From: Burkholderiales bacterium
GTDB taxonomy: Bacteria; Pseudomonadota; Gammaproteobacteria; Burkholderiales; JAHFRG01
DNA: 64,000 nt
Direction: 5' to 3'
NCBI GenBank assembly: GCA_035543335.1
Contig: DASZZH010000025.1
Coordinates: 184,185 to 248,184 of the forward strand
In this document: positions 3,516-48,313 of the stretch, piece after piece
How the letters are laid out: every line of letters starts with the position of its first letter
Numbering within the stretch: position 1 is the stretch's first letter
Translations under genes and position numbers: made by a program
The notes under the pieces: model-generated
Databases searched by the model: none
What the model saw: the letters and a program-made list of their open reading frames with translations, nothing else
Told to the model about the DNA's origin: nothing

Positions 3516-4349
3516 ATGTCTCAGCCCCCGCCCATCGTGTTGTGCTTCGGCGCCACCGATCCTTCCGGCGGCGCGGGATTACAGGCTGACATCATGACGC
3601 TCTCCAGCATGGGCTGCCATCCCTTGTCCATTGTCACCGCCGTCACGATTCAAGACAGCGCGGGCGTGGAGGATTTGCTTGCGCTCGATCCGGAGTGGGT
3701 CGCCGACCAGGCGCGCTGTGTGCTGGAAGACATGGCGGTGTCCACGTTCAAGATTGGTTTGCTTGGAAGCGTGGAAATCACCGCGGCAATCGCCGAGGTC
3801 GTCTCGGACTATCCAGACATTCCGCTGGTGCTCGATCCGGTGCTGGCTTCGGGGCGCGGCGAGGAGCTTGCCAGCGAGGAAATGATTGCGGCGATGAAGG
3901 AACTTTTGATTCCGCAGACTACCCTGATTACACCGAACAGCATGGAAGCGCGGCGCCTGGCTCTGAAAGATAACAACGACAGCGACGACCCGGGCCTTTC
4001 CGAATGCGCGCAGCGGCTCTTGGACCTGGGCTGTGAATACGTGCTGATCACCGGCACGCATGAAAACACGCCGCAGGTGATCAACACGCTTTACGCGCAG
4101 GAGGGCGTTCTGCGCAACGATTCCTGGGAGCGGCTGCCGGGCAGTTATCACGGTTCCGGCTGCACTCTGGCCGCAGCGGTCGCGGCGACGCTTGCCAACG
4201 GCTTGAGCATTTCCGAGGCGGTGCGCGACGCGCAGGAATACACCTGGCATGCGCTGAAAGCGGCGTTCCGCCCGGGCATGGGGCAATACATTCCCGACCG
4301 CCTGTTCTGGGCGCGCGAAGAAGAAAATGGTGAAACCGGGCAGGATTAG
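3516..4349 (+). CDS. thiD: Hydroxymethylpyrimidine/phosphomethylpyrimidine kinase
   Basis: Ribokinase-like ThiD pattern: DPSGGAGLQADI, VLDPVLASGRG, and the C-terminal GSGCTLAAAVAA. Confidence 0.9.
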   Translation: MSQPPPIVLCFGATDPSGGAGLQADIMTLSSMGCHPLSIVTAVTIQDSAGVEDLLALDPEWVADQARCVLEDMAVSTFKIGLLGSVEITAAIAEVVSDYPDIPLVLDPVLASGRGEELASEEMIAAMKELLIPQTTLITPNSMEARRLALKDNNDSDDPGLSECAQRLLDLGCEYVLITGTHENTPQVINTLYAQEGVLRNDSWERLPGSYHGSGCTLAAAVAATLANGLSISEAVRDAQEYTWHALKAAFRPGMGQYIPDRLFWAREEENGETGQD

Positions 4350-4720: not shown

Positions 4721-5334
4721 GTGGTCTTTACGCGATTACGCCCAACGAGGCCGACACTCCAAAGCTGATTCACCAGGTGAAACTCGCGCTCGAAGGCGGG
4801 ACGCGCTGGGTGCAGTATCGAAATAAAAGCGCAAACAACAAGCTCAGGCGGCGACAGGCGGAAGCGCTCGCCGCGTTGTGCAGCCAGTTCGGCGCCGCGC
4901 TCATCATCAATGATGATATCGAACTCACCCGGGCGTGCAATGCGCATGGCGCGCACCTGGGCCGGGAAGACGCATCGCTGGCGACCGCAAGAAGCTTGCT
5001 TGGGAAAAACAAAATCATCGGCGCATCGTGCTATGACCAGATCGAGCGTGCCATTGAAGCCGAAGCGCAAGGCGCGGATTATGTCGCCTTCGGCAGTTTC
5101 CATCCGTCTTCGGTCAAGTCCCACACTGTGCGGCCGCAAGTGCAATTGCTGGCCCAGGCCAGGACAAAACTTTCGGCGCCGATTGTGGCGGTTGGCGGAA
5201 TTACATTGGAAAATGCGGGCGTGTTGATAGAAGCGGGAGCGGACGCCGTGGCGGTCATCAGCGCCTTGTTCAACGCGCCCGACATCAAGACGGCGGCCAA
5301 AAAATTTAACTGCTTGTTTGCCAGCCGGCAATGA
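4645..5334 (+). CDS. thiE: Thiamine-phosphate synthase
   Basis: LRGLYAITP..., VQYRNK, INDD, and GGI..EN are ThiE patterns. The only in-frame start upstream of LRGLY is the TTG at 4645, with an AAGGGGAG SD, and it lies inside repeat E2. The start is therefore uncertain. Confidence 0.85.
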
Positions 5335-35774: not shown

Positions 35775-35815
35775 GCCTAACGACCCAAGCTCAGCGACCC
35801 GGCCCGGAGTAGGAC
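35775..35815 (-). other. Truncated or degenerate attC between the MDR and SDR ORFs
   Basis: A good R' GTTAGGCG (35781-35774 on the minus strand), but only a poor R''-like GTCCTAC partner about 35 bp away. It is too short for a normal attC. Confidence 0.35.
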
Positions 35816-35823
35816 TGACCGAT

Positions 35824-36825
35824 TCACTTCATCTGGACAACGACCTTCCCTTTGGCCCGGCCCATCTCGAGATACGCAAGCGCCTCCTTCGCTTGATCGA
35901 ACGGAAATACCTTGTCGATCACCGGCCGAATGTTCCGCACCTTGAGAAGCTCGCCGATCTCTGCGAGTTGGCTACCGTCTGGATTCACGAGCAGGAATGA
36001 ATACTCGACGCCTCGTTTCTTGGCGAGGCGATGCATCTTATAGCTCAGCAACCACAGCGCGAACACCATGAGAAAGTTCATGCCCCGCGTCCGACCGAAC
36101 GCGGCGTCAGGTGGCCCGACGATCGAGACGACGATGCTCCCCTGCCTCAGAATCTGGAAGGATTTCTCAAGCGATTCGCCCCCGAGGGTGTCCAGGACGG
36201 CATCGTAATCCCGCAGGACATCCTCAAATTTTTGCTTCTGGTAATCGATCACCTCATCGGCTCCCAGGCTCCGCACCAGATCCACGTTGCCGGCGCTGGT
36301 CGTCGTCGCCACCTTGGCTCCGAGGTATTTCGCGAGCTGGATCGCGAACGTGCCAATGCCTCCAGCGCCTGCGGGGATGAATACCTTGTGGCCGGGCTTG
36401 ATGTGTGCACGCTCCTTAAGCGTTTGCCATGCCGTCAGTGCGACCATCGGCATGGAGGCCGCTTGCACGAAGTCCAGGTGTGCTGGTTTCAGCGCGGCGG
36501 CGTTCTCGGCTACAACCGCAAACTCAGCGAGAGCGCCCATGCGTAGCCCATGGATGCTGGCGAAGACAGCATCGCCCGGCTTGAAGCGGGTGACACTACC
36601 GCCCACCTCCACCACTACACCTGCCAAATCGCTGCCCAGCGTGGCCGGTAACTGAAACCGGAGGATGGCCTTCATTTTTCCACTCCGGATCTTGTTTTCG
36701 ACCGGGTTTAAGCCAGCAGCGTGGACCTGAATGAGAATTTCGTTCGGCTTGGGCACTGGTCGAGGAATGTCAGCAAACGCGACCTGATCCAGTCCGCCAT
36801 AACGTTTGAAGACAAGTGCTCTCAT
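35824..36825 (-). CDS. Medium-chain dehydrogenase/reductase, NADPH:quinone-oxidoreductase-like, cassette-borne
   Basis: 333 aa. GLNPVE, cofactor motif AGAGGIGTFAIQLAK, and no structural-Zn Cys cluster. Confidence 0.85.
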   Translation of the reverse strand: MRALVFKRYGGLDQVAFADIPRPVPKPNEILIQVHAAGLNPVENKIRSGKMKAILRFQLPATLGSDLAGVVVEVGGSVTRFKPGDAVFASIHGLRMGALAEFAVVAENAAALKPAHLDFVQAASMPMVALTAWQTLKERAHIKPGHKVFIPAGAGGIGTFAIQLAKYLGAKVATTTSAGNVDLVRSLGADEVIDYQKQKFEDVLRDYDAVLDTLGGESLEKSFQILRQGSIVVSIVGPPDAAFGRTRGMNFLMVFALWLLSYKMHRLAKKRGVEYSFLLVNPDGSQLAEIGELLKVRNIRPVIDKVFPFDQAKEALAYLEMGRAKGKVVVQMK

Positions 36826-36886
36826 GTTTCCCTGTGTTCGAGGTATTCGGACCTAATGGCTGCGTTCACAGCATGCGCGTAGCAGC

Positions 36887-36967
36887 GCCTAACGTCCCGC
36901 ATGAGCGGCCAAGCGAGCGGGCGAAGCCCGCTTGCGAAGGTCCGCCTCGATGCGGCGGTTAGTTGGC
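36887..36967 (-). other. attC of cassette 3
   Basis: Minus strand R'' GCCAACTAAC (36967-36958) ... R' GTTAGGC (36893-36887). R'' is exactly complementary to the cassette's own 5' end GTTAGTTGGC (37329-37320). Confidence 0.75.
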
Positions 36968-37291
36968 AGCATGCTTCTGCGGCAAGTTGCGATACCCCCA
37001 ATGACCCTCGGTCCGAGGTGCCGGAGTGCCGCGCCCACGCTGGCGGTAAACCAACACGTAGCCGACCTGAGGTTCCAAGCATAGCGCCCAAACGACTGTG
37101 TAGCCACGACGCGTGAAGTTTATCTTCAAATGACCTCGCGCCTCGAGTTCGATGAGCTTTCGTTCTGGGTCCTTGGGTTTCCGTGGAATTGGCACCATGC
37201 GAAGTCCGAGTGTTTGGACGGACTGCCGAATCCCGTCGTAGTCTGCCACTACGCGCGCGAGTTCGGTCGGTGGAAGGGCCTTCATTGGCAT
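36959..37291 (-). CDS. Hypothetical cassette protein (110 aa)
   Basis: ATG at 37291 preceded by GGAG at 8 nt. The TAA stop lies inside the attC R'' core. No family recognised. Confidence 0.5.
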   Translation of the reverse strand: MPMKALPPTELARVVADYDGIRQSVQTLGLRMVPIPRKPKDPERKLIELEARGHLKINFTRRGYTVVWALCLEPQVGYVLVYRQRGRGTPAPRTEGHWGYRNLPQKHAAN

Positions 37292-37320
37292 GTTCGTCAC
37301 TCCTAGTGGTTTTCCCAATG

Positions 37321-37418
37321 CCAACTAACGTTCCCAGCAACCGGCGCGCGCCCACCGCCCCTGGCGAAGCACGACGCTCGCGCGCGCGTCCGGGTTGGCT
37401 GGGGGGTTAGTTGTCACC
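37321..37418 (-). other. attC of cassette 2
   Basis: Minus strand R'' GGTGACAACTAAC (37418-37406) ... R' GTTAGTTGG (37329-37321). R'' is exactly complementary over 13 nt to the cassette 5' end GTTAGTTGTCACC (38116-38104). Confidence 0.8.
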
Positions 37419-37419
37419 G

Positions 37420-38100
37420 TCATTGCCCCTTGATAACCAGCATTGGTCGATGTCTTTCCTCGTCGTAGCTCACGGTGACAAGTTCCAGTGGCTCAGTGAT
37501 ATTGCGATCTGACCCAGTATCTCTCATGCGGAGGGTATGGGCGTCACAGCTCTGAACGACACAATCGCTACGCGTCCGGTAGCGCTGGTCGGCTATGTGC
37601 TCTGTGCTCCCGAGCTTGTGCTGCACACAGATGACTGTGATAGGCCCGCCACGCATGCGAAGGATTGCAGCGACTTTGTCGTTGCGACTTGCAATTAGCT
37701 CTTCAAAGAGCTCGAGAGACGCTGCTACGGACTCTGAACCGCGGCGCACAAAGGCCGGTCCCGAGAAATGCGGGCGGTTCTTGCTGTGAGCAACTACAAC
37801 CGCGAGCACGGGCTTGCCATCTACGTTCAACACCTCTGAAGCAAATGCGATGGGCGGATAACACACGCGTTCGCACTGCTCTCGGACCGTTTTTTGGAGC
37901 TTGTCCGGGTTCTCAACGCCCTGAATCTTTCCGTCGTTGTGTACACCGATAAAGAGAACCCCCGAACTGTCGGGAGGCACACTATTCGCAAATGCTGTGA
38001 TCGTCTGCCTGATCTCGGAGGCATTGACGCCGTCCGGCTTGCGCTCGACGAAGTTGTCCTCGTGATTCTTGAGCCGTCCCGTCAGAGCGTCTTGGGCCAT
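37420..38100 (-). CDS. AlbA_2 (Schlafen-like) domain protein with an unrecognised C-terminal domain, cassette-borne
   Basis: 226 aa. HEDNFVERK...ITAFANS...GVLFIGVHNDGKIQGV...FVRRGSES matches the remembered AlbA_2/PF04326 pattern (ExxxEFK, AFaN, GGxlxiGVxDdGxixG, R.gs.t). The last 90 or so residues are unassigned. Confidence 0.7.
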   Translation of the reverse strand: MAQDALTGRLKNHEDNFVERKPDGVNASEIRQTITAFANSVPPDSSGVLFIGVHNDGKIQGVENPDKLQKTVREQCERVCYPPIAFASEVLNVDGKPVLAVVVAHSKNRPHFSGPAFVRRGSESVAASLELFEELIASRNDKVAAILRMRGGPITVICVQHKLGSTEHIADQRYRTRSDCVVQSCDAHTLRMRDTGSDRNITEPLELVTVSYDEERHRPMLVIKGQ

Positions 38101-38108
38101 CTTGGTGA

Positions 38109-38169
38109 CAACTAACGTGTCCGCGTGAGACGCGCGATAGCGTCGTTCTCGACGCGGGGGTTAGCTGGC
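38109..38169 (-). other. attC of cassette 1
   Basis: Minus strand R'' GCCAGCTAAC (38169-38160, containing the ORF's TAA stop) ... R' GTTAGTTG (38116-38109). R'' is complementary to the cassette 5' end GTTAGCTGGC (38635-38626). Confidence 0.8.
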
Positions 38170-38625
38170 ACGCCAGACTTCATAGAGTGATTTCTCCCCC
38201 AAGAGCCAAACGCGACGATACGGACCGTCCTGTGCATCAAGTTGCTGCCGAAGCGACGCGAGAATCATGTCGTCCGTTGCCACAACGCGCGCGTTGGTAT
38301 AGCACAGCAATTCAAGCGGTCGGTCTGTGCGATAGGTTTTGGCCAGTTTCTTGCGTGCGATCGAGGCAGAAGGGTCTGAGATAGATAGCACGATCTCTCC
38401 GCGTCCCTTTAGAAGAGCGGATATGTTGGCAGCGAGCGTGCTTTCGCAAATCTCCGTGAGTTCGAATGCAACGGTGCCTTCACCTTCAATCATGCACGTT
38501 ATATCTGGTTCGGATTCACCCGAATGCTTGGTAACGGAGTCCGGCACAATCGACAACGCTGCCTTCCTCCGAAACTCTTCGAATACGGATAGCTCGACGG
38601 TGGATTGGCGCTCTGCTGAGTTCAT
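38161..38625 (-). CDS. Hypothetical cassette protein (154 aa), attI-proximal
   Basis: The ORF fills the first cassette exactly. The ATG starts 10 nt after the crossover G and no SD is visible. No family recognised. A weak PD...E.T nuclease-like pattern (EPDITC...AFELTE) is speculative. Confidence 0.6.
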   Translation of the reverse strand: MNSAERQSTVELSVFEEFRRKAALSIVPDSVTKHSGESEPDITCMIEGEGTVAFELTEICESTLAANISALLKGRGEIVLSISDPSASIARKKLAKTYRTDRPLELLCYTNARVVATDDMILASLRQQLDAQDGPYRRVWLLGEKSLYEVWRAS

Positions 38626-38796
38626 GCCAGCTAACTAAAAATGGGCACCAAAAGTGGTGCCTAATCTGGCGAATTCTGCCTTTTGCGGTGTCATCCTGCA
38701 AGTAATTCAATCCGTTATAGAGATTCAAGCGATAAAAAATATCGCAAAACACACCAGATGATGAGACAAGTGATTGACAATAAACACCATTCATTA
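38626..38796. other. attI region with the attI x cassette junction and the divergent promoter region
   Basis: The junction core GTTAGCTGGC (minus strand) at 38635-38626 sits between intI and the first cassette. Promoters were not confidently located. Confidence 0.5.
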
Positions 38797-39770
38797 ATGC
38801 AACCGGCAAAACCCAAGCTGCTTGATCAGGTCCGTGCCGCAATCCGCTGCCGGCATTACAGCCGCCGCACCGAAGACACTTATATCCACTGGATTAAGCG
38901 CTTCATTTTCTTCAATAACAAGCGCCACCCGGAACAGATGGGGGAGACGGAAATTACGGAGTTTTTGAACCACTTGGCCGTCGAGCGTAATGTCGCGGCC
39001 GCTACCCAGAATCAGGCGCTCTCTGCTTTGCTGTTTCTGTACCGCGATGTGCTGGAAAAAAACTCGCGTGGCTTGATCAAATACAGCATGCGAAGAAACC
39101 GGTTCGGCTTCCCACCGTGCTTTCCCCCAGCGAAGTTCAACGGCTACTCTCCGGGCTGGATGGATCAAAATGGTTGATGGCCAGCCTGCTTTATGGCTGC
39201 GGTCTGCGGCTGATGGAATGTTTGCAGTTGCGCGTCAAGGATGTGGATTTTGCCTATCGCCAGATAATCGTTCGCGATGGCAAAGGCGGGAAAGACCGCG
39301 TAACCGTGCTGCCCGAGCGTTTGCTCGAACCGCTGCGCGACCATCTCGGCAAAGTCCGGCTGCTGCATCAGCTGGATCTTGCTTCAGGGCACGGCGATGT
39401 GTATTTGCCGCATGCGCTCTCTGTAAAATACCCGCGCGCCGGCTACCAATGGGGCTGGCAGAATGTGTTTCCGTCGAAAAATCTTTCCGCCGACCCCGAA
39501 TCAGGCGTCATCCGCAGGCATCACCTTGACGAGAAATCCTTGCAACGCGCGGTAAAGCAGGCGGCTACGCGAGCAGGCATTCTCAAGCCGGTAAGCAGCC
39601 ACGTGCTGCGTCATTCATTCGCCACGCACCTGCTGCAAAATGGCTACGACATCCGAACGATACAAGAACTGCTCGGTCACTCTGATGTGAGCACTACCAT
39701 GATTTACACTCATGTGATGAATCGCGGCGGAAAGGGCGTGCAAAGTCCGATTGATGCCCTCCCGCTTTAG
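38797..39770 (+). pseudogene. intI: Integron integrase IntI, disrupted by a frameshift in an A7 run (39056-39062)
   Basis: The N-part KPKLLDQVRAAIRCRHYSRRTEDTYIHWIKRFIFF ends out of frame. The C-part is in another frame with [27 protein letters not shown] and [12 protein letters not shown]...[14 protein letters not shown]. It also carries the IntI-specific insertion [17 protein letters not shown]...[11 protein letters not shown]. Removing one A restores ...[29 protein letters not shown]. Confidence 0.85.
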
Positions 39771-42201: not shown

Positions 42202-42846
42202 ATGAAATTGCTTAAATACCTGCTGCTCTCATGCCTGTTGGCATTCACCGGGATGACCACCGGCGCATCCGCAGAGCCCAGGCTCGACAAGGATTACCGC
42301 CTTATCACTCCGGCGCAGCCCACCGAGACCGGCGACAAAATCGAGGTCATCGAGTTTTTTTACTACGGCTGCCCGCACTGTTTTGATCTCGAGCCCTATC
42401 TCAAAAGGTGGAAGAGCAGCATGCCCAAAGACGTCGCTTTCCGTCTCGTTCCAGTCGTGTTCCGCGATTCCTGGGTGCCGCTCACCAGGACTTTTTACAC
42501 CCTGGAAGCGCTGGGTGAGCTCGCCCGGCTGCACAATGAGGTATTCGAGGCGATTCACCTGAAAAACATCAATCTCAACAACGAGCAAACCTTGTTCGAC
42601 TGGGCGGAAAAATACGGCGTGGACCGCAAGAAATTCGCAGACGCCTACGAATCATTCGCCGTCAGGAACCGCGTGGTAAACGCGAGAACGCTCACCCTGG
42701 CTTACGGCATGGAAAACACACCTTCGCTGGTGGTGGACGGCAAATACCTCACCGGCCCCGGACTCACCGGCTCGCATGAAAGCGCCATCAAGGTGCTCGA
42801 TGAGCTGATTGCCAAGGCGCGGGAGGCGCGGGCCTCCAAGCGTTGA
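42202..42846 (+). CDS. dsbA: Thiol:disulfide interchange protein DsbA
   Basis: Signal peptide and the CPHC active site (FFYYGCPHCFDLEP). Confidence 0.9.
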   Translation: MKLLKYLLLSCLLAFTGMTTGASAEPRLDKDYRLITPAQPTETGDKIEVIEFFYYGCPHCFDLEPYLKRWKSSMPKDVAFRLVPVVFRDSWVPLTRTFYTLEALGELARLHNEVFEAIHLKNINLNNEQTLFDWAEKYGVDRKKFADAYESFAVRNRVVNARTLTLAYGMENTPSLVVDGKYLTGPGLTGSHESAIKVLDELIAKAREARASKR

Positions 42847-43601
42847 TTAAAGTTGTCATCACCGGCGCGTCGAGCGGCATCGGCGAGACGCTGGCGCGCG
42901 AATATGCCAGACGGGGCGCGATACTTGCCTTGATCGCGCGTCGCGCCGACCTCCTCGCCGGACTCAAGAACACGCTCCCCGCGACCGTCGCCACTTACGC
43001 CGCTGATGTGCGTGATGCTCAGGCGATGCAGCAAGCGGCCGGTGATTTCGTTTCGCGCTTTGGCTGTCCCGATGTGGTGATTGCCAACGCCGGAATCAGC
43101 CGCGGCACGCTCACTGAAAAAGCCGAAGATCTCGAAGCGTTTCAGAGAATCCTGGACATCAACGTGATGGGAATGGTCAAAACCTTTCAGCCCTTTCTTC
43201 CCGCCATGCGCGAAGCAGGACGGGGAACGTTGGTGGGCATTGCCAGCGTGGCCGGCTTTCGCGGCTTCCCCGGCGTGGGGGCATACTGCGCCTCCAAGTC
43301 TGCCGCGATCACCTATCTCGAAAGCCTGCGCGCGGAACTTCACGGCAGCGGTCTCTCGGTGCTCACGGTTTGTCCGGGTTACATCGCCACTGCGATGACC
43401 GCGAACAACCCTTACCCCATGCCCTTCATCATCAGCGCGGAAGCGGCGGCGAAAAAAATCATCCGCGCCATTGAGAGCCAACGCCGGTTCCTGGTCATTC
43501 CCTGGCAGATGGCGGTACTCGGGCGCCTTCTGAAAATCCTGCCGGGCGGGCTCTATGATCGGCTGTTTGCCAAAGCGCTGCGCAAGCCGCGCGATGTCTG
43601 A
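42843..43601 (+). CDS. SDR-family oxidoreductase
   Basis: ITGASSGIG, NAG and YCASKSA. Confidence 0.85.
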   Translation: MIKVVITGASSGIGETLAREYARRGAILALIARRADLLAGLKNTLPATVATYAADVRDAQAMQQAAGDFVSRFGCPDVVIANAGISRGTLTEKAEDLEAFQRILDINVMGMVKTFQPFLPAMREAGRGTLVGIASVAGFRGFPGVGAYCASKSAAITYLESLRAELHGSGLSVLTVCPGYIATAMTANNPYPMPFIISAEAAAKKIIRAIESQRRFLVIPWQMAVLGRLLKILPGGLYDRLFAKALRKPRDV

Positions 43602-43603
43602 TT

Positions 43604-43864
43604 TTACCCGGCAGCCAGCCGCTGCCTGACTTCCGCTTCCGAGATTCCCGCAATTTCCACGACCTTCCTCGGCGAAGCGTGACCGGAGGCGATAAGCACT
43701 TGGTCCTTGGGCAAATCAAGCGCCTCGGCCAAAACTTCCCGCACCGCGAAGTTCGCCTTGCCTTGTTCCGGCGCGGCGCTGACGCAGATTTTCAGCGTAT
43801 CGCCCATCCAGCCCGCAACCGCGTTTCGCGAAGACTTGGGCACCACCTTGATTTTGAGTTTCAT
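43604..43864 (-). CDS. DUF167 (YggU-like) protein
   Basis: 86 aa. KVVPKSSRN...[14 protein letters not shown] is the typical DUF167 pattern. ATGA overlap with the upstream macro gene. Confidence 0.8.
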
Positions 43865-44385
43865 GCACGGCGGCCTAAAGCATACAAGCAGGCCCGATAC
43901 ACCGGCTCATCAAAGCACGCGAAATACACCTGCTTTAACGAGCGTTGTTTTTCCAGCGCTTTCAGCGTTTCTCCAGCGGCTATGGCGCAGGCCTGCTCGA
44001 TTGGATAGCCATAGACGCCGCAACTGATGGCGGGGAAAGCCATGGTTTGAATTCCATGCTGAACTGCGAGCTTGAAGCTTTCGCGATAACAGGAAGCCAG
44101 CAGTTCCGGTTCATTGCTCTTGCCGCCTTTCCATACCGGCCCGACCGTGTGAATAACATGCCTGGTTTTCAGGCGATAACCCTTGGTGATTTTCGCCTTG
44201 CCGGTTTCGCAGCCACCCAATGTTCGGCATTCGGCAAGGAGTTCCGGTCCCGCTATGCGGTGGATCGCTCCATCCACGCCGCCGCCGCCGAGCAGCGTAG
44301 TGTTTGCGGCATTGACAATCGCATCCACCTCGAGCTCGGTAATATCGCCTTTTACCACCTTGATTCGATCAGTTGCCGCAAGCAT
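43861..44385 (-). CDS. ymdB: Macro-domain protein (O-acetyl-ADP-ribose deacetylase, YmdB-like)
   Basis: [28 protein letters not shown] and [12 protein letters not shown]. Confidence 0.9.
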
Positions 44386-44389
44386 TGCT

Positions 44390-45454
44390 TCACCCTTCGT
44401 CTTGCACCACCGTGTAGGGATCGGCAGGCTTGTCTGGATTGGTCCGCGTAAGTTTCAGGCTCTGCGGATTGTAGGGCGGGATGCATGATGCCAGGCGCGT
44501 TTCCACGCTCCAATGAACCTTCGGGAATTTGTCGAGGCTGTTTACATCGCGCACTTTTCTTTTGGTGAGCGCCATGATGCCTTGGCGCGAATTGCGCAGC
44601 TCGCCCCAAGGATTGGGTTTCAGCCGCAAATCTGCAAGCGTATTCCCGTCAAACCCGAGTCCGTTTATTTTGGCCTTGGCGATTATCCAATTCAGCGCCA
44701 GATCCGAAAGACCGGTGTCCGCATAACCGCCGCCGACATTCGAATGCACGCCGCAAAACCAGACCTGCTCAATCCCATCGCGGTCATCCCATAAAGTAGG
44801 CATGAATTCCGCGCGCTCCTCGTCCAGCGCCACCGCGTGGTAGCCGTGCCTCACCTGCGGATGAAGAGCGGTGTCATGAAAGCGCTCGATCCAGCGGTTA
44901 ATACCCCTGAAGAAAATCAGCGGGATACCCAGCGCGCCCACGGTATCCCACACGCCTATCATCTCGATGTCAGTATCGTAGGAATGCGCCTGTTTGAACG
45001 CTTTCTTCTCCTCGGCATCGCCGTGGCGGTACACAAGATACGCCTCCTGAATGTTTTGCCTGCGCTCCTGGTCCGGCCAGTTCAGGTCATCGCGCAAAAC
45101 CCCGCACGCCACGATGAATCCGCCCAGACTGCGGGCAGTATAAGCGCCGCGGCTGAAGCCAAACAGGAACAGCCGGTCGCCTGCCTGGTAATTTTTGACG
45201 ATGAACTCATAGCAGTCCTTGATGTTTTCGGATAAGCCAATGCCAAGCAGGCCGCCCAGAATGCGCGTGCCGAAATTGGTGCCCACGCCCGAATCGTAAA
45301 AAAGCGCCTTTCCTTCGCTTTTTGACTCGCGCCCGCTGGTTCCGCCCAGCGCTTTAAAAATCTTGAAAACATTGGTCGGTGCGGGCTTGCCGCGGTCTTT
45401 TTCTGACGGCTTGTTCCAGGTACCGTCGGCGCAAACGATGATATCTTTAGGCAT
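44390..45454 (-). CDS. DUF2235 (Tle1-like alpha/beta hydrolase) protein
   Basis: IVCADGTWN at the N-terminus, nucleophile elbow GFSRGA, and [10 protein letters not shown]. Confidence 0.8.
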
Positions 45455-45521
45455 GGCTCTATCCGAGAATCTGAGGTATCGTTTTCCTTATCATTCTAGC
45501 GCCAAGCAGCGGAGGGACAAA

Positions 45522-45941
45522 ATGAAAACTCATCGCCAGGAATTGCTATTTAAAACCCCCACCAAGGAAGCGTTCATCAACATCACCCCGCAAGTCGAGG
45601 AAGCGCTGAAGGCAAGCGGCGTCAAGGAAGGACTGGTGCTGGTCAACGCGATGCATATTACCGCTTCGGTGTTCGTCAATGACGACGAGCGGGGCTTGCA
45701 CAGCGACTTTACCCGCTTTCTGGAGGGGCTTGCTCCCCACCAACCCATCAAGCAATACCGCCACAACGACACTGGCGAGGACAACGCCGATGCCCACATC
45801 AAGCGCCAGCTATTTGGGCGCGAAGTCGTGGTTGCAGTGACTTCGGGAAAACTGGATTTCGGCCCTTGGGAGCAGATTTTCTACGGTGAATTCGACGGCC
45901 GGCGTCCGAAGCGGGTGCTGGTAAAAATCATCGGGGAATAG
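45522..45941 (+). CDS. yjbQ: YjbQ/UPF0047 family protein (secondary thiamine-phosphate synthase)
   Basis: 139 aa. [18 protein letters not shown] and [24 protein letters not shown]. Confidence 0.85.
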
Positions 45942-46038: not shown

Positions 46039-46788
46039 ATGAGACTGCATATTCTCAGTAACCTGCACCTGGAGTTAGGCGATTTCGTCCCGCCTGACAC
46101 CAGCGCGGACGCGGTCATTCTTGCCGGGGATATTCATGTGCAGGAACATGGCATTGACTGGGCAGTTAAACACTTTTCGGTGCCTGTCTATTATGTCCTT
46201 GGGAACTACGAGTTCTACGGCGGGCATCTTGAGCGCACGGTGAAGCGGCTCAAGCAAAAAACCGCCGGCACAAACGTACGCGTGCTCGAGTGCGATGAAG
46301 CTATTCAGGAGAACGTTCGCTTTTTGGGCGGCACCTGTTGGACGGACTTCTCGGCAACCGGCAATCTCCAGCTGGCCATGTCGGATGCGCGCCAGACGAT
46401 GAGCGATTACCGCGAAATCCGGGCCGGCATGGGCTTTCGCAAGCTTCGTCCCGAAGACACCCAGAAGAAGCACACCGAATTCAAGGCATGGCTGCGGAAA
46501 AAACTCAATGAGCCCTTTGACGGCAAGACGGTTGTGATTACCCATCACGCGCCATCCATTCTGTCAATTGCGCCCGAATACCTGGACGAGTTCACTCACG
46601 GTAGCGCGGCTTATGTCAACCGCATGGAGCACCTGATGGGCAAGCCGGTTGCGCTCTGGGTGCACGGCCAGACACACAGCAAGTTTGACTATGAGATTTC
46701 GAGTACCCATGTGGTGTGCAACCCGCGCGGCCACCATGGCCTCAGGCTCAACAAGCAATTTGACCCTCGGCTGGTGATAGAGCTTTAA
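46039..46788 (+). CDS. Calcineurin-like metallophosphoesterase
   Basis: Metal-ligand motifs LSNLHLE, AGDIH, GNYEF, THHAP and GQTH. Confidence 0.75.
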   Translation: MRLHILSNLHLELGDFVPPDTSADAVILAGDIHVQEHGIDWAVKHFSVPVYYVLGNYEFYGGHLERTVKRLKQKTAGTNVRVLECDEAIQENVRFLGGTCWTDFSATGNLQLAMSDARQTMSDYREIRAGMGFRKLRPEDTQKKHTEFKAWLRKKLNEPFDGKTVVITHHAPSILSIAPEYLDEFTHGSAAYVNRMEHLMGKPVALWVHGQTHSKFDYEISSTHVVCNPRGHHGLRLNKQFDPRLVIEL

Positions 46789-46809: not shown

Positions 46810-46865
46810 GCGAATTTGACGGCCGCCGCTGCAAAAGGGTACTGGTGAAAATCATCGGGGAGTAA
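46810..46865 (+). pseudogene. Detached copy A of the yjbQ 3' end (56 bp, with its own TAA)
   Basis: It encodes ...[16 protein letters not shown]. It aligns to 45886-45941. Confidence 0.75.
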
Positions 46866-46883: not shown

Positions 46884-47888
46884 TTACGCCAGGAGATACC
46901 GGCCGGACTTTCGCGTACCCTCGCGCTTGACCAAATCCGCTTCCATGAGCGGCCGTAGCAAGTCAATCGCGCCTTGCTTGGAGACACCTAACCCATCCCA
47001 GATTTCCTTGGGACTCATGCTGCCCCGCTCACGAAGCAGTTGCAGCAATTGCTCCTGTTTGGGTCGCAGCACCAGTTTTTTTCCTTTCGACTGAGCCGAC
47101 AGACCTTGCACACGCTTCCAGACCTGCTGGAGTGTCAGCAATAATCCTTCCGCAGCGTATTCCAGCCAAGAGGTCAGATCATCGCCTTGCTGCGGCACGG
47201 CCCGCAGGGCCGCGTAATAACGAGGCCGGTTCTCCCAGTAGTACTCGTCCACCGAGAAAATGTGGTGCGTATCGAACCCGCGCCGGTACAACTCCCATAG
47301 AGCCAGCGCGCGGCCCGTCCGTCCATTGCCGTCAGCGAAAGGATGAATGGCTTCGAACCGATAATGGACGATCGCGGAACTGATAACTGGCGACAATATC
47401 CCCGATGTCTTGTTCCACCATTGCAGAAACTCAAACATGAGACCGGATACCTGCTCCGGCGGCGGTGGCACGTATGAGCCCACTCGAACCTGCGTTGTGC
47501 GGTAGCGTCCTGCCTCTCCCTGGTTCATCACGTTCCCCGCGATGATTTTGTGAAGCTTGAGGACATCCTCGTGGGTGATGAGACTCTTCTTGGCGTGCTT
47601 CTCGAGATGCCGCAGCGCCGCAAAATAATTCAGCACCTCCCGCTTGTCCCGGGTGCTGACCGTCGCCAGTTCGCGGCCCTCCTCAACGGCCCGCACTTGT
47701 TCAAGAGTCAGCGGATTGCCTTCAATCGCCGTCGAGGAGTGCGCGAGGCGTGCCCGCGTGTCCTTCTGCAACGTCGGAATCCAAGGCACTTCGACTGCGG
47801 CGTTCACAATCCAACCCCGCAGCGCCGCTATTTCTTCGACGCGGGTAAGCAACTGCGGGGTGATGGTGAACTTCGGCTGATAGCTCAT
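46884..47888 (-). CDS. Fic-family protein (AMPylase-type) with a C-terminal winged-helix domain
   Basis: Fic motif HPFADGNGRTGRA, an N-terminal inhibitory-helix motif STAIEGN ([ST]xxxE[GN]), and a C-terminal wHTH-like tail. Confidence 0.9.
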   Translation of the reverse strand: MSYQPKFTITPQLLTRVEEIAALRGWIVNAAVEVPWIPTLQKDTRARLAHSSTAIEGNPLTLEQVRAVEEGRELATVSTRDKREVLNYFAALRHLEKHAKKSLITHEDVLKLHKIIAGNVMNQGEAGRYRTTQVRVGSYVPPPPEQVSGLMFEFLQWWNKTSGILSPVISSAIVHYRFEAIHPFADGNGRTGRALALWELYRRGFDTHHIFSVDEYYWENRPRYYAALRAVPQQGDDLTSWLEYAAEGLLLTLQQVWKRVQGLSAQSKGKKLVLRPKQEQLLQLLRERGSMSPKEIWDGLGVSKQGAIDLLRPLMEADLVKREGTRKSGRYLLA

Positions 47889-47937: not shown

Positions 47938-47967
47938 CCTGTGGCTCAAGCAGCGGCAAGACTTGCC

Positions 47968-48117
47968 CTATAGTTCGCCTTTGAACGCATGGTCGAGGAT
48001 GGGAGGAAGCAGAGCGTCGAGTTCGGCGGCGGTTTCGGCTTGCGGACGTTTAAGCTCGTCGGAAAGTCTCAACCGATTCGTTCCCAGAAAGGGAGCGATA
48101 ACCCCCAATTTAGGTAA
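47968..48117 (-). pseudogene. hsdS: Remnant of a type I restriction-modification specificity subunit (HsdS) C-terminus
   Basis: My manual translation gives ...[35 protein letters not shown]. The AF(K/R)GEL ending is characteristic of HsdS. There is no start codon or N-terminal domains. Confidence 0.5.
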
Positions 48118-48130
48118 TTACGACCTAGCT

Positions 48131-48248
48131 GCCGAAGTCGTGGTCGCCGTCACCGGCGGCAAGCTCGACTTCTGGCCCTGGGACCAGATTTTCTACGGCG
48201 AGTTCGACGGCCGCCGCCGCAAAAGGGTGCTGGTAAAGATTATCGGGG
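48131..48248 (+). pseudogene. Detached copy B of the yjbQ 3' part (118 bp, no proper stop)
   Basis: It encodes [38 protein letters not shown]. It aligns to 45819-45936. Confidence 0.75.
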
Positions 48249-48313
48249 CAAGGCTCGAACTAGGGGCCCGGATTAAATAAAGCCCGCAGACCAAACCTGA
48301 CGTGTTGCAACGA

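Follow-up and report, generated by a model that had tools for sequence, protein, structure and literature searches.

An operon-like, lineage-specific arrangement of Tle1-like hydrolase, macro-domain and DUF167 genes in uncultured Burkholderiales

When three genes lie almost end to end in a single genome, do they form a conserved functional module or a local operon? We address this question for a locus at positions 43604-45454 of a 64,000-nucleotide (nt) stretch of a Burkholderiales genome (contig DASZZH010000025.1, positions 184,185 to 248,184; hereafter the window), in which three tightly packed minus-strand open reading frames (ORFs) encode a DUF2235 hydrolase of the Tle1 lipase family known from type VI secretion systems (T6SSs), a macro-domain protein and a DUF167 protein. 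An earlier note on this DNA had proposed that the hydrolase and the macro protein could be a regulatory pair, comparable to the E. coli lipid enzyme ClsC and the macro protein YmdB. We find that all three genes are new members of known families and that the arrangement is narrow and lineage-specific. The most probable explanation, which we hold with modest confidence, is a lineage-specific operon whose hydrolase is co-expressed with the macro-DUF167 pair and not obligatorily tied to it.

Gene junctions and the first slot

The first gene, encoding a DUF2235/Tle1-like hydrolase of 354 amino acids (aa), occupies positions 44390-45454 on the minus strand and ends in a TGA stop codon (44392-44390). 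A 4-nt spacer (AGCA, 44386-44389, minus strand) separates this stop from the start of the second gene (43861-44385, minus strand), which encodes a 174-aa MacroD/YmdB-type macro protein and whose ribosome-binding region (GAAGGGTGAAGCA) is contained within the 3'-terminal part of the DUF2235 ORF. The stop codon of the macro gene and the start codon of the third gene (43604-43864, minus strand), which encodes an 86-aa YggU-like DUF167 protein, overlap in a common ATGA at 43861-43864. These coordinates and junctions agree with those given in the earlier note. Between the three genes we found no terminator-like and no promoter-like sites. The only promoter-like site lies upstream of the first gene, where a sigma-70-like candidate (TTGTCC-16 nt-TAGAAT, 45493-45520, minus strand; 9 of 12 consensus positions matched) straddles the 64-nt spacer (45455-45518) in front of the divergent yjbQ gene and the yjbQ start itself. 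This candidate is a consensus match only, with two such sites against 1.6 expected from shuffled sequences. A -10-like TAGAAT or TAAAAT is also found upstream of the first operon gene in the related loci L081 and L166.

All genes of the locus, both types of hydrolase that occur at it included, are under purifying selection, with ratios of nonsynonymous to synonymous substitution (dN/dS) of 0.08-0.22 overall and 0.08-0.18 for DUF2235. Because this selection acts on them and because the same junction types recur in the related locus L082, we conclude that the three are real genes in an operon-like arrangement. The tight layout described in the earlier note is therefore genuine, and the genes are probably co-transcribed and translationally coupled. 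Their composition is native to the genome (guanine-plus-cytosine content about 0.55-0.59) and gives no sign of foreign origin. A chance adjacency of three independently transcribed genes would fit the absence of the arrangement outside its clade, described below, but we judge it very improbable: separate promoters or terminators would not fit into the 4-nt gap and the ATGA overlap, the layout is kept at 92% identity, and the macro-DUF167 junction is kept across the whole clade.

The window sequence itself recurs in three assemblies. At L082, where the proteins are 92% identical, the same three genes are joined by equivalent junctions, with a gene for a TauE-family permease upstream. Further syntenic relatives, which belong to uncultured Burkholderiales where they are named, encode macro proteins 74-78% identical to that of the window. 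They have the gene order argS-SPOR-dsbA-SDR, then DUF167-macro-X, then yjbQ, in which SDR is a short-chain dehydrogenase gene and X the position directly upstream of macro; this order is seen in L083, L166-L168 and L170-L173, and up to the contig end in L169 and L174. The 4-nt overlap between macro and DUF167 is present, or nearly so, in every clade locus that extends past macro (L082 and L166-L174). For L171 and L174, where gene calling overlooked DUF167 or truncated it, an intact frame with a GTG start is present. The arrangement persists across lineages separated by synonymous divergence (dS) above 1, and it is confined to this small clade of uncultured Burkholderiales.

Within the clade, the content of slot X varies. 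It holds DUF2235 in the window, L081 and L082, and in six contigs (L169-L174) it holds a class-3 lipase (Lipase_3) of 320-322 aa, identified by a match to PF01764 (E-value, E, 2.1e-18), with a GHSLG(G/A) nucleophile elbow and a hydrophobic C-terminal segment. The two hydrolases have no sequence similarity to each other, and both are joined to macro by a gap of 4-17 nt or by a stop/start overlap. When the window is compared with its lipase-bearing relatives, DNA homology stops at 44367, 18 nt inside the 5' end of macro, and resumes at 45501-45941 in yjbQ, the left anchor of the exchangeable slot; the break (44368-45500) spans the first gene exactly. Both the window and the lipase-bearing L169 and L170 have a GTGAAGCRATG motif at the macro start, and therefore the right edge of the exchanged segment lies approximately 10 nt upstream of the macro start. 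From these alignments, the exchanged segment is in essence the first gene plus the spacer upstream of it.

In a third state, represented by L166-L168, the hydrolase has been deleted and macro-DUF167 kept. Slot X here is a DUF2235 remnant, made up of approximately 34 nt of the spacer that separates TauE from DUF2235 in L082 and the first 13 nt of the DUF2235 ORF (GCCATGCCTAAAGATA, an exact 16-mer), followed directly by macro. The remnant was found by exact-word search and direct reading of the sequence, and was left unplaced in a global MAFFT alignment of the slot. Between TauE and macro in L166 (positions 4937-5000; also in L167 and L168) it carries ATGCCTAAAGATA, which reads MPKDR followed by a stop codon.

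By the identities of SDR, DsbA, SPOR, macro and DUF167, the window and L082 fall outside a group that comprises L166 and all lipase-bearing contigs. In the simplest history, starting from an ancestral TauE-DUF2235-macro-DUF167 operon, DUF2235 would have been deleted once, in the L166 lineage, and replaced once by Lipase_3, and TauE would have disappeared several times. Multiple independent swaps were considered and rejected, as a single replacement plus a single deletion is compatible with the identities of the flanking genes. Another rearrangement of this slot is seen in L169 (640-4030), where TauE and Lipase_3 are separated by inserted genes for a carboxyltransferase, an AMP-dependent ligase and a DUF1178 protein; duplicated fragments, one from the 5' end of Lipase_3 (704-811) and one from the 3' end of TauE (3873-3977), mark the ends of this insertion.

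Together these observations suggest an operon of three genes, set among housekeeping genes on the chromosome of an uncultured member of the Burkholderiales and transcribed probably from the short divergent spacer that it has in common with yjbQ. A translationally coupled macro-DUF167 pair would be its stable core, and the first position would be an accessory slot, filled by a Tle1-like hydrolase, filled by a class-3 lipase or emptied by deletion. The hydrolase is dispensable within the clade, since it was deleted in L166-L168 while macro-DUF167 stayed. It would then share a promoter with the pair without being its obligatory biochemical partner.

Searches beyond the clade and the case for a functional module

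If the three genes formed a conserved module, as the earlier note suggested could be seen from their co-localization in other genomes, they should be found together elsewhere. We examined 80 genomic loci with DUF2235 homologues of 37-47% identity from many phyla, with up to 6 kb of flanking sequence on either side, and 80 metagenomic loci with macro homologues of 55-69% identity. None of the DUF2235 loci (0 of 80) had a macro or DUF167 neighbor by tblastn, and none of the macro loci (0 of 80) had DUF167, DUF2235, Lipase_3 or TauE. The same-strand ORFs that flank the 80 macro genes have mixed Pfam assignments (DSBA, PNPOx, FtsH, carboxyltransferase and others); no recurrent family of the expected kind was present among the 25 commonest, a summary in which single occurrences could be hidden, and the phospholipase D (PLD) family was likewise not among these 25. 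At both of the two DUF167 relatives of 63% identity, a macro neighbor was absent and the contexts were unrelated. Concatenated two-protein tblastn queries against the 72,556 plasmid and chromid records of PLSDB returned no record with macro and DUF167, DUF2235 and macro, or Lipase_3 and macro side by side. Among the homologues listed, each has a single Pfam domain and none is a macro-DUF167 or DUF2235-macro fusion. Literature searches found no paper pairing DUF167 with a macro domain, and for DUF2235 together with macro they returned only papers on T6SSs or macrophages. Co-localization in other genomes, the test named in the earlier note, thus fails outside the one narrow clade, and a conserved DUF2235-macro-DUF167 trio is only weakly supported.

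Beyond the close cluster, the nearest DUF2235 homologue is P0004 (51% identity), encoded by the first gene of a different operon of four genes (L175:3779-8461) whose setting is mobile-element-like. P0004 has a Cys-rich C-terminal extension, and the operon adjoins genes encoding AlpA, HTH_17 and Fic proteins. Its other three products (466, 487 and 190 aa) gave neither a convincing Pfam assignment nor a PADLOC match, apart from a weak PASTA match in the 487-aa protein. This operon may be an uncharacterized mobile-element or defense-type system.

The macro protein is unremarkable: it is a highly conserved enzyme of the YmdB type. It matches PF01661 (E 1.3e-46) and scores above the cut-off of the NCBIfam equivalog model NF001664 for O-acetyl-ADP-ribose deacetylase (228 bits against 200), and its sequence matches in the PDB are MacroD1/2 and E. 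coli YmdB (E 1e-46 to 1e-49; YmdB structure 5cb3, E 5.5e-46). Relatives at 65-78% identity number in the thousands, and the motif NAAN...GGGVDGAIH and a second motif are invariant or nearly so in 20 homologues. Based on these family matches, we predict a MacroD/YmdB-type O-acetyl-ADP-ribose deacetylase or mono-ADP-ribosylhydrolase.

Could the lipase-like hydrolase nevertheless work with, or be controlled by, the MacroD-type enzyme and DUF167 in a true functional module? We regard this as possible but rather doubtful. Such a module might take the form of ADP-ribose- or O-acyl-ADP-ribose-linked control of a membrane-lipid hydrolase, by analogy with the boosting of ClsC by YmdB, or the proteins might possibly catalyze consecutive steps on an acylated ADP-ribose-type substrate. 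Several observations favor it and weigh against our preferred explanation. Two unrelated lipase-like alpha/beta hydrolases alternate in the identical slot directly upstream of macro, both tightly joined to it and, like all of the putative partners, both under purifying selection, in a layout that has outlasted the divergence noted above. This pattern looks like in-place replacement by an analogous enzyme, the usual signal of a role shared with the neighbors. In addition, ymdB in E. coli is likewise joined to the gene for a lipid enzyme, clsC. The scope of the neighborhood search also bears on the question, as it comprised the two sets of 80 loci plus a handful of look-ups, and the Pfam summaries of macro neighbors covered the 25 commonest families.

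Other results argue against a module. The pairing is absent from the 80 DUF2235 loci, the 80 macro loci and the PLSDB records; the hydrolase was cleanly lost in L166-L168 with macro-DUF167 kept; macro encodes an unremarkable YmdB-type orthologue that is highly conserved; the phylogeny needs one swap event only (n=1); and one of the two hydrolases has a hydrophobic C-terminal segment that the other does not. The in-place exchange of two lipase-like hydrolases is the one real hint of functional coupling, and it may rest on a single event. A specific version, in which a MacroD-type plus DUF167 module needs or controls a lipase-like hydrolase, Tle1-like or class-3 interchangeably, strikes us as unlikely without being far-fetched. 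The interpretation given in the earlier note is partly supported: the class-3 lipase in the same slot of sister lineages speaks for it, and the dispensability of the hydrolase and the lack of any pairing outside the clade speak against it.

The precedent on which that proposal drew is itself real. Annotations of ymdB overlap those of clsC or PLD-family genes in E. coli and Salmonella records, and clones carrying ymdB raise ClsC levels by an unexplained mechanism (PMC8027125). As in that pair, a YmdB-type macro gene here adjoins, in the same orientation, the gene for a putatively lipid-active enzyme, an activity assigned by family only. However, macro is partnered here by a serine hydrolase of alpha/beta type (DUF2235, or Lipase_3 in sister lineages) and not by a PLD-family cardiolipin synthase, the hydrolase gene lies upstream of macro whereas clsC lies downstream of ymdB, and DUF167 is added. 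The trio is not a member of the ymdB-clsC pair type and would at most work like it.

Were the coupling real, it would be a second independent link between a macro domain and a membrane-lipid enzyme after YmdB-ClsC, and a tractable example for the unexplained effect of YmdB on ClsC. It would suggest a control of lipid turnover linked to ADP-ribose or O-acyl-ADP-ribose, provide a first functional partner for the uncharacterized DUF167 family, and offer a physiological, non-secreted role for the many short stand-alone Tle1-like hydrolases. More probably there is no such coupling; the locus is then an ordinary operon of one lineage, and its main lesson is methodological: very tight spacing in one genome is not enough to show a conserved module.

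The hydrolase, DUF167 and known systems

The family identities given in the earlier note, a DUF2235 protein with a GFSRGA motif, a YmdB-type macro protein and a YggU-like DUF167 protein, are borne out by Pfam and NCBIfam matches above cut-offs. For the hydrolase this match is to PF09994 (T6SS_Tle1-like_cat / DUF2235; E 6.8e-73). The GFSRGA motif lies at residues 99-104, and the catalytic triad S101 (in GFSRGA), D170 (in IGVWDT) and H237 is invariant in 31 homologues. The motifs of Tle1 enzymes are GXSXG, FXGXXD and EXXXPGXHXDIG, which carry a Ser-Asp-His triad (PMC10395195); all three are matched here, by G99-F-S101-R-G, I-G-V-W-D170 and E229...G-V-H237-S-N-V-G. By its family, the product of the first gene is predicted to be a compact cytoplasmic, non-secreted Ser-Asp-His esterase or phospholipase.

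An AlphaFold2 model of the hydrolase is confident (predicted local distance difference test, pLDDT, 83; predicted template-modeling score, pTM, 0.87). Its best Foldseek matches in the PDB are the Tle1 structures 4o5p (E 2.8e-10), 6sjl and 9j3f, at 16-19% identity, with query TM-scores of 0.38-0.47 and target TM-scores of 0.22-0.29; these scores are low because the targets are about twice the length of the query. With Legionella lpg2422 added, the matches all comprise 520-780 residues at 12-19% identity. A sequence-only search of the PDB detected 9j3f as the sole match (E 4.6e-05). Given its 354 aa against the 520-780 aa of the Tle1 structures and the weak sequence match, the protein is a bare catalytic module from a distant stand-alone branch. 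This branch is huge, with more than 7,900 database clusters at E <1e-10, mostly single-domain proteins of 340-400 aa from many phyla.

Could the hydrolase instead be an orphan T6SS cargo effector of the Tle1 type, stranded beside unrelated genes? It resembles the T6SS Tle1 effectors of P. aeruginosa (4o5p) and enteroaggregative E. coli (6sjl), and TleB (9j3f), in its PF09994 membership, its Ser-Asp-His motifs and its best fold matches. However, it is half their size or less, comprising the catalytic module only, and lacks a VgrG-binding extension. No vgrG, hcp, PAAR or adaptor gene is present among the annotated genes within approximately 10 kb, and none appears in NCBIfam's 25 most-matched families for 49 window ORFs or in the Pfam matches of ten large ORFs, scans that did not take in every window ORF. 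Nor is there a periplasmic immunity (Tli) gene with a signal peptide next to DUF2235, which is flanked by macro and DUF167 downstream and by the divergent yjbQ upstream. The hydrolase has no hydrophobic leader or transmembrane-like segment, and the same is true of the macro and DUF167 proteins (highest 19-residue Kyte-Doolittle means 1.53, 1.04 and 0.85, respectively). The earlier note was thus right that T6SS genes, a signal peptide and an immunity gene are missing near DUF2235. The thousands of similar short stand-alone homologues also include proteins from Actinomycetota and Chloroflexota, phyla in which T6SSs are not typical. The protein is a PF09994 member that lacks the context expected of a T6SS Tle1 effector, namely delivery genes, an immunity gene and extension domains, and an orphan effector is a most improbable explanation.

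Slot variation of this kind has a parallel in the V. cholerae Aux1 cluster, in which one slot holds either Tle1 (DUF2235) or the lipase TseL/Tle2, depending on the strain (PMC10395195). In both cases a single chromosomal slot alternates between a DUF2235 hydrolase and a different lipase. Aux1, however, is an auxiliary cluster of a T6SS that includes vgrG and cognate periplasmic immunity genes, whereas the slot described here is flanked by yjbQ or TauE and by macro-DUF167, with no T6SS.

Another explanation is that the hydrolase is a toxin or abortive-infection effector and that macro-DUF167 counteracts or regulates it. Both the persistence of an antidote after loss of its toxin and the swapping of toxins would then be accounted for. 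The slot behaves as a swappable cassette, and only the first gene was lost. DUF2235 belongs to the Tle1 family of antibacterial lipases, and class-3 lipase domains occur in T6SS effectors such as TseL. The nearest outside homologue, P0004, is encoded in a mobile-element-like island with a Fic gene next to it, and a SoFic-like gene is found 1.4 kb from the trio. On the other hand, PADLOC assigned no family to the trio proteins, Lipase_3, P0004 or the P0004 operon partners, the macro protein is of housekeeping type and stands alone in very varied contexts elsewhere, a single antidote for two unrelated toxins would be unusual, and the composition of the trio is native. We therefore consider a toxin-antidote pair highly unlikely, and we continue to favor a lineage-specific operon with a non-obligatory hydrolase.

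The DUF167 protein matches PF02594 (E 6.2e-21; 74.8 bits against a cut-off of 30.9) and passes TIGR00251 (83 bits against 35), the families to which E. coli YggU also belongs, and it matches the YggU structure 1n91 at E 7.3e-08. It fails the YggU-specific model NF003466, scoring 50 bits against a cut-off of 138. By these model scores it is a member of its Pfam and TIGR families and not the YggU orthologue. In E. coli, yggU is part of a yggS-yggT-yggU cluster, whereas DUF167 here is coupled to macro and not to yggS/yggT.

The surrounding region

The NCBIfam and Pfam scans of window ORFs described above returned housekeeping functions only, among them PBP1a, pilM, a pilus-type secretin, ResB, a cytochrome c assembly protein, PriA, HemE, argS, a GlmS-like protein and ATP synthase. 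The convergent neighbor of the trio is the SDR gene (42843-43601, plus strand), which anchors the syntenic block SDR-dsbA-SPOR-argS on the right. The stop codons of DUF167 and SDR are 2 nt apart (43599-43606) with no terminator-like structure between them, and the two transcripts may overlap as antisense RNAs.

On the other side, the divergent yjbQ gene (UPF0047; PF01894/TIGR00149) runs from an ATG at 45519 to 45941 on the plus strand and encodes 139 aa, the same length as in L083. A longer yjbQ ORF listed for the window, with a TTG start at 45363 (192 aa) that overlaps the start of DUF2235, is spurious; the real start is the ATG at 45519, as called in L083. Apparent YjbQ matches in tblastn near DUF2235 genes elsewhere were false and came from the spurious N-terminal extension of this ORF.

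The region between glmS and SDR, in which gene sets differ between relatives, is visibly recombination-prone. The 3' end of yjbQ is present in three diverged direct copies (45821-45941, 46810-46864 and 48133-48248) of 51-116 nt that are 78-86% identical, the third of them within a 105-aa ORF (47963-48280) that repeats the C-terminus of YjbQ. Between the copies lie an inserted Fic gene and a metallophosphoesterase gene (46039-46788) that is inverted relative to all syntenic relatives. The Fic gene (46884-47888, minus strand), located 1.4 kb from the trio, encodes a protein with a C-terminal winged helix and a PADLOC match to SoFic (E 5.7e-61). It is absent from the syntenic L166 and L170-L174, which indicates an insertion in the window. 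Such a pattern resembles the outcome of repeated insertion, site-specific or driven by homology, at the yjbQ 3' end.

Next to argS, an integron-type integrase (38683-39767, plus strand; best match TIGR02249, E 5.1e-102) is split into two overlapping ORFs, as it also is in two independent assemblies, L083 and L084 (139 and 197 aa). On its 5' side, at approximately 35800-38625 on the minus strand, are small same-strand ORFs encoding a 110-aa protein, a 226-aa AlbA_2 protein, a further 110-aa protein and a zinc alcohol dehydrogenase. These ORFs could be a candidate cassette array of a chromosomal integron.

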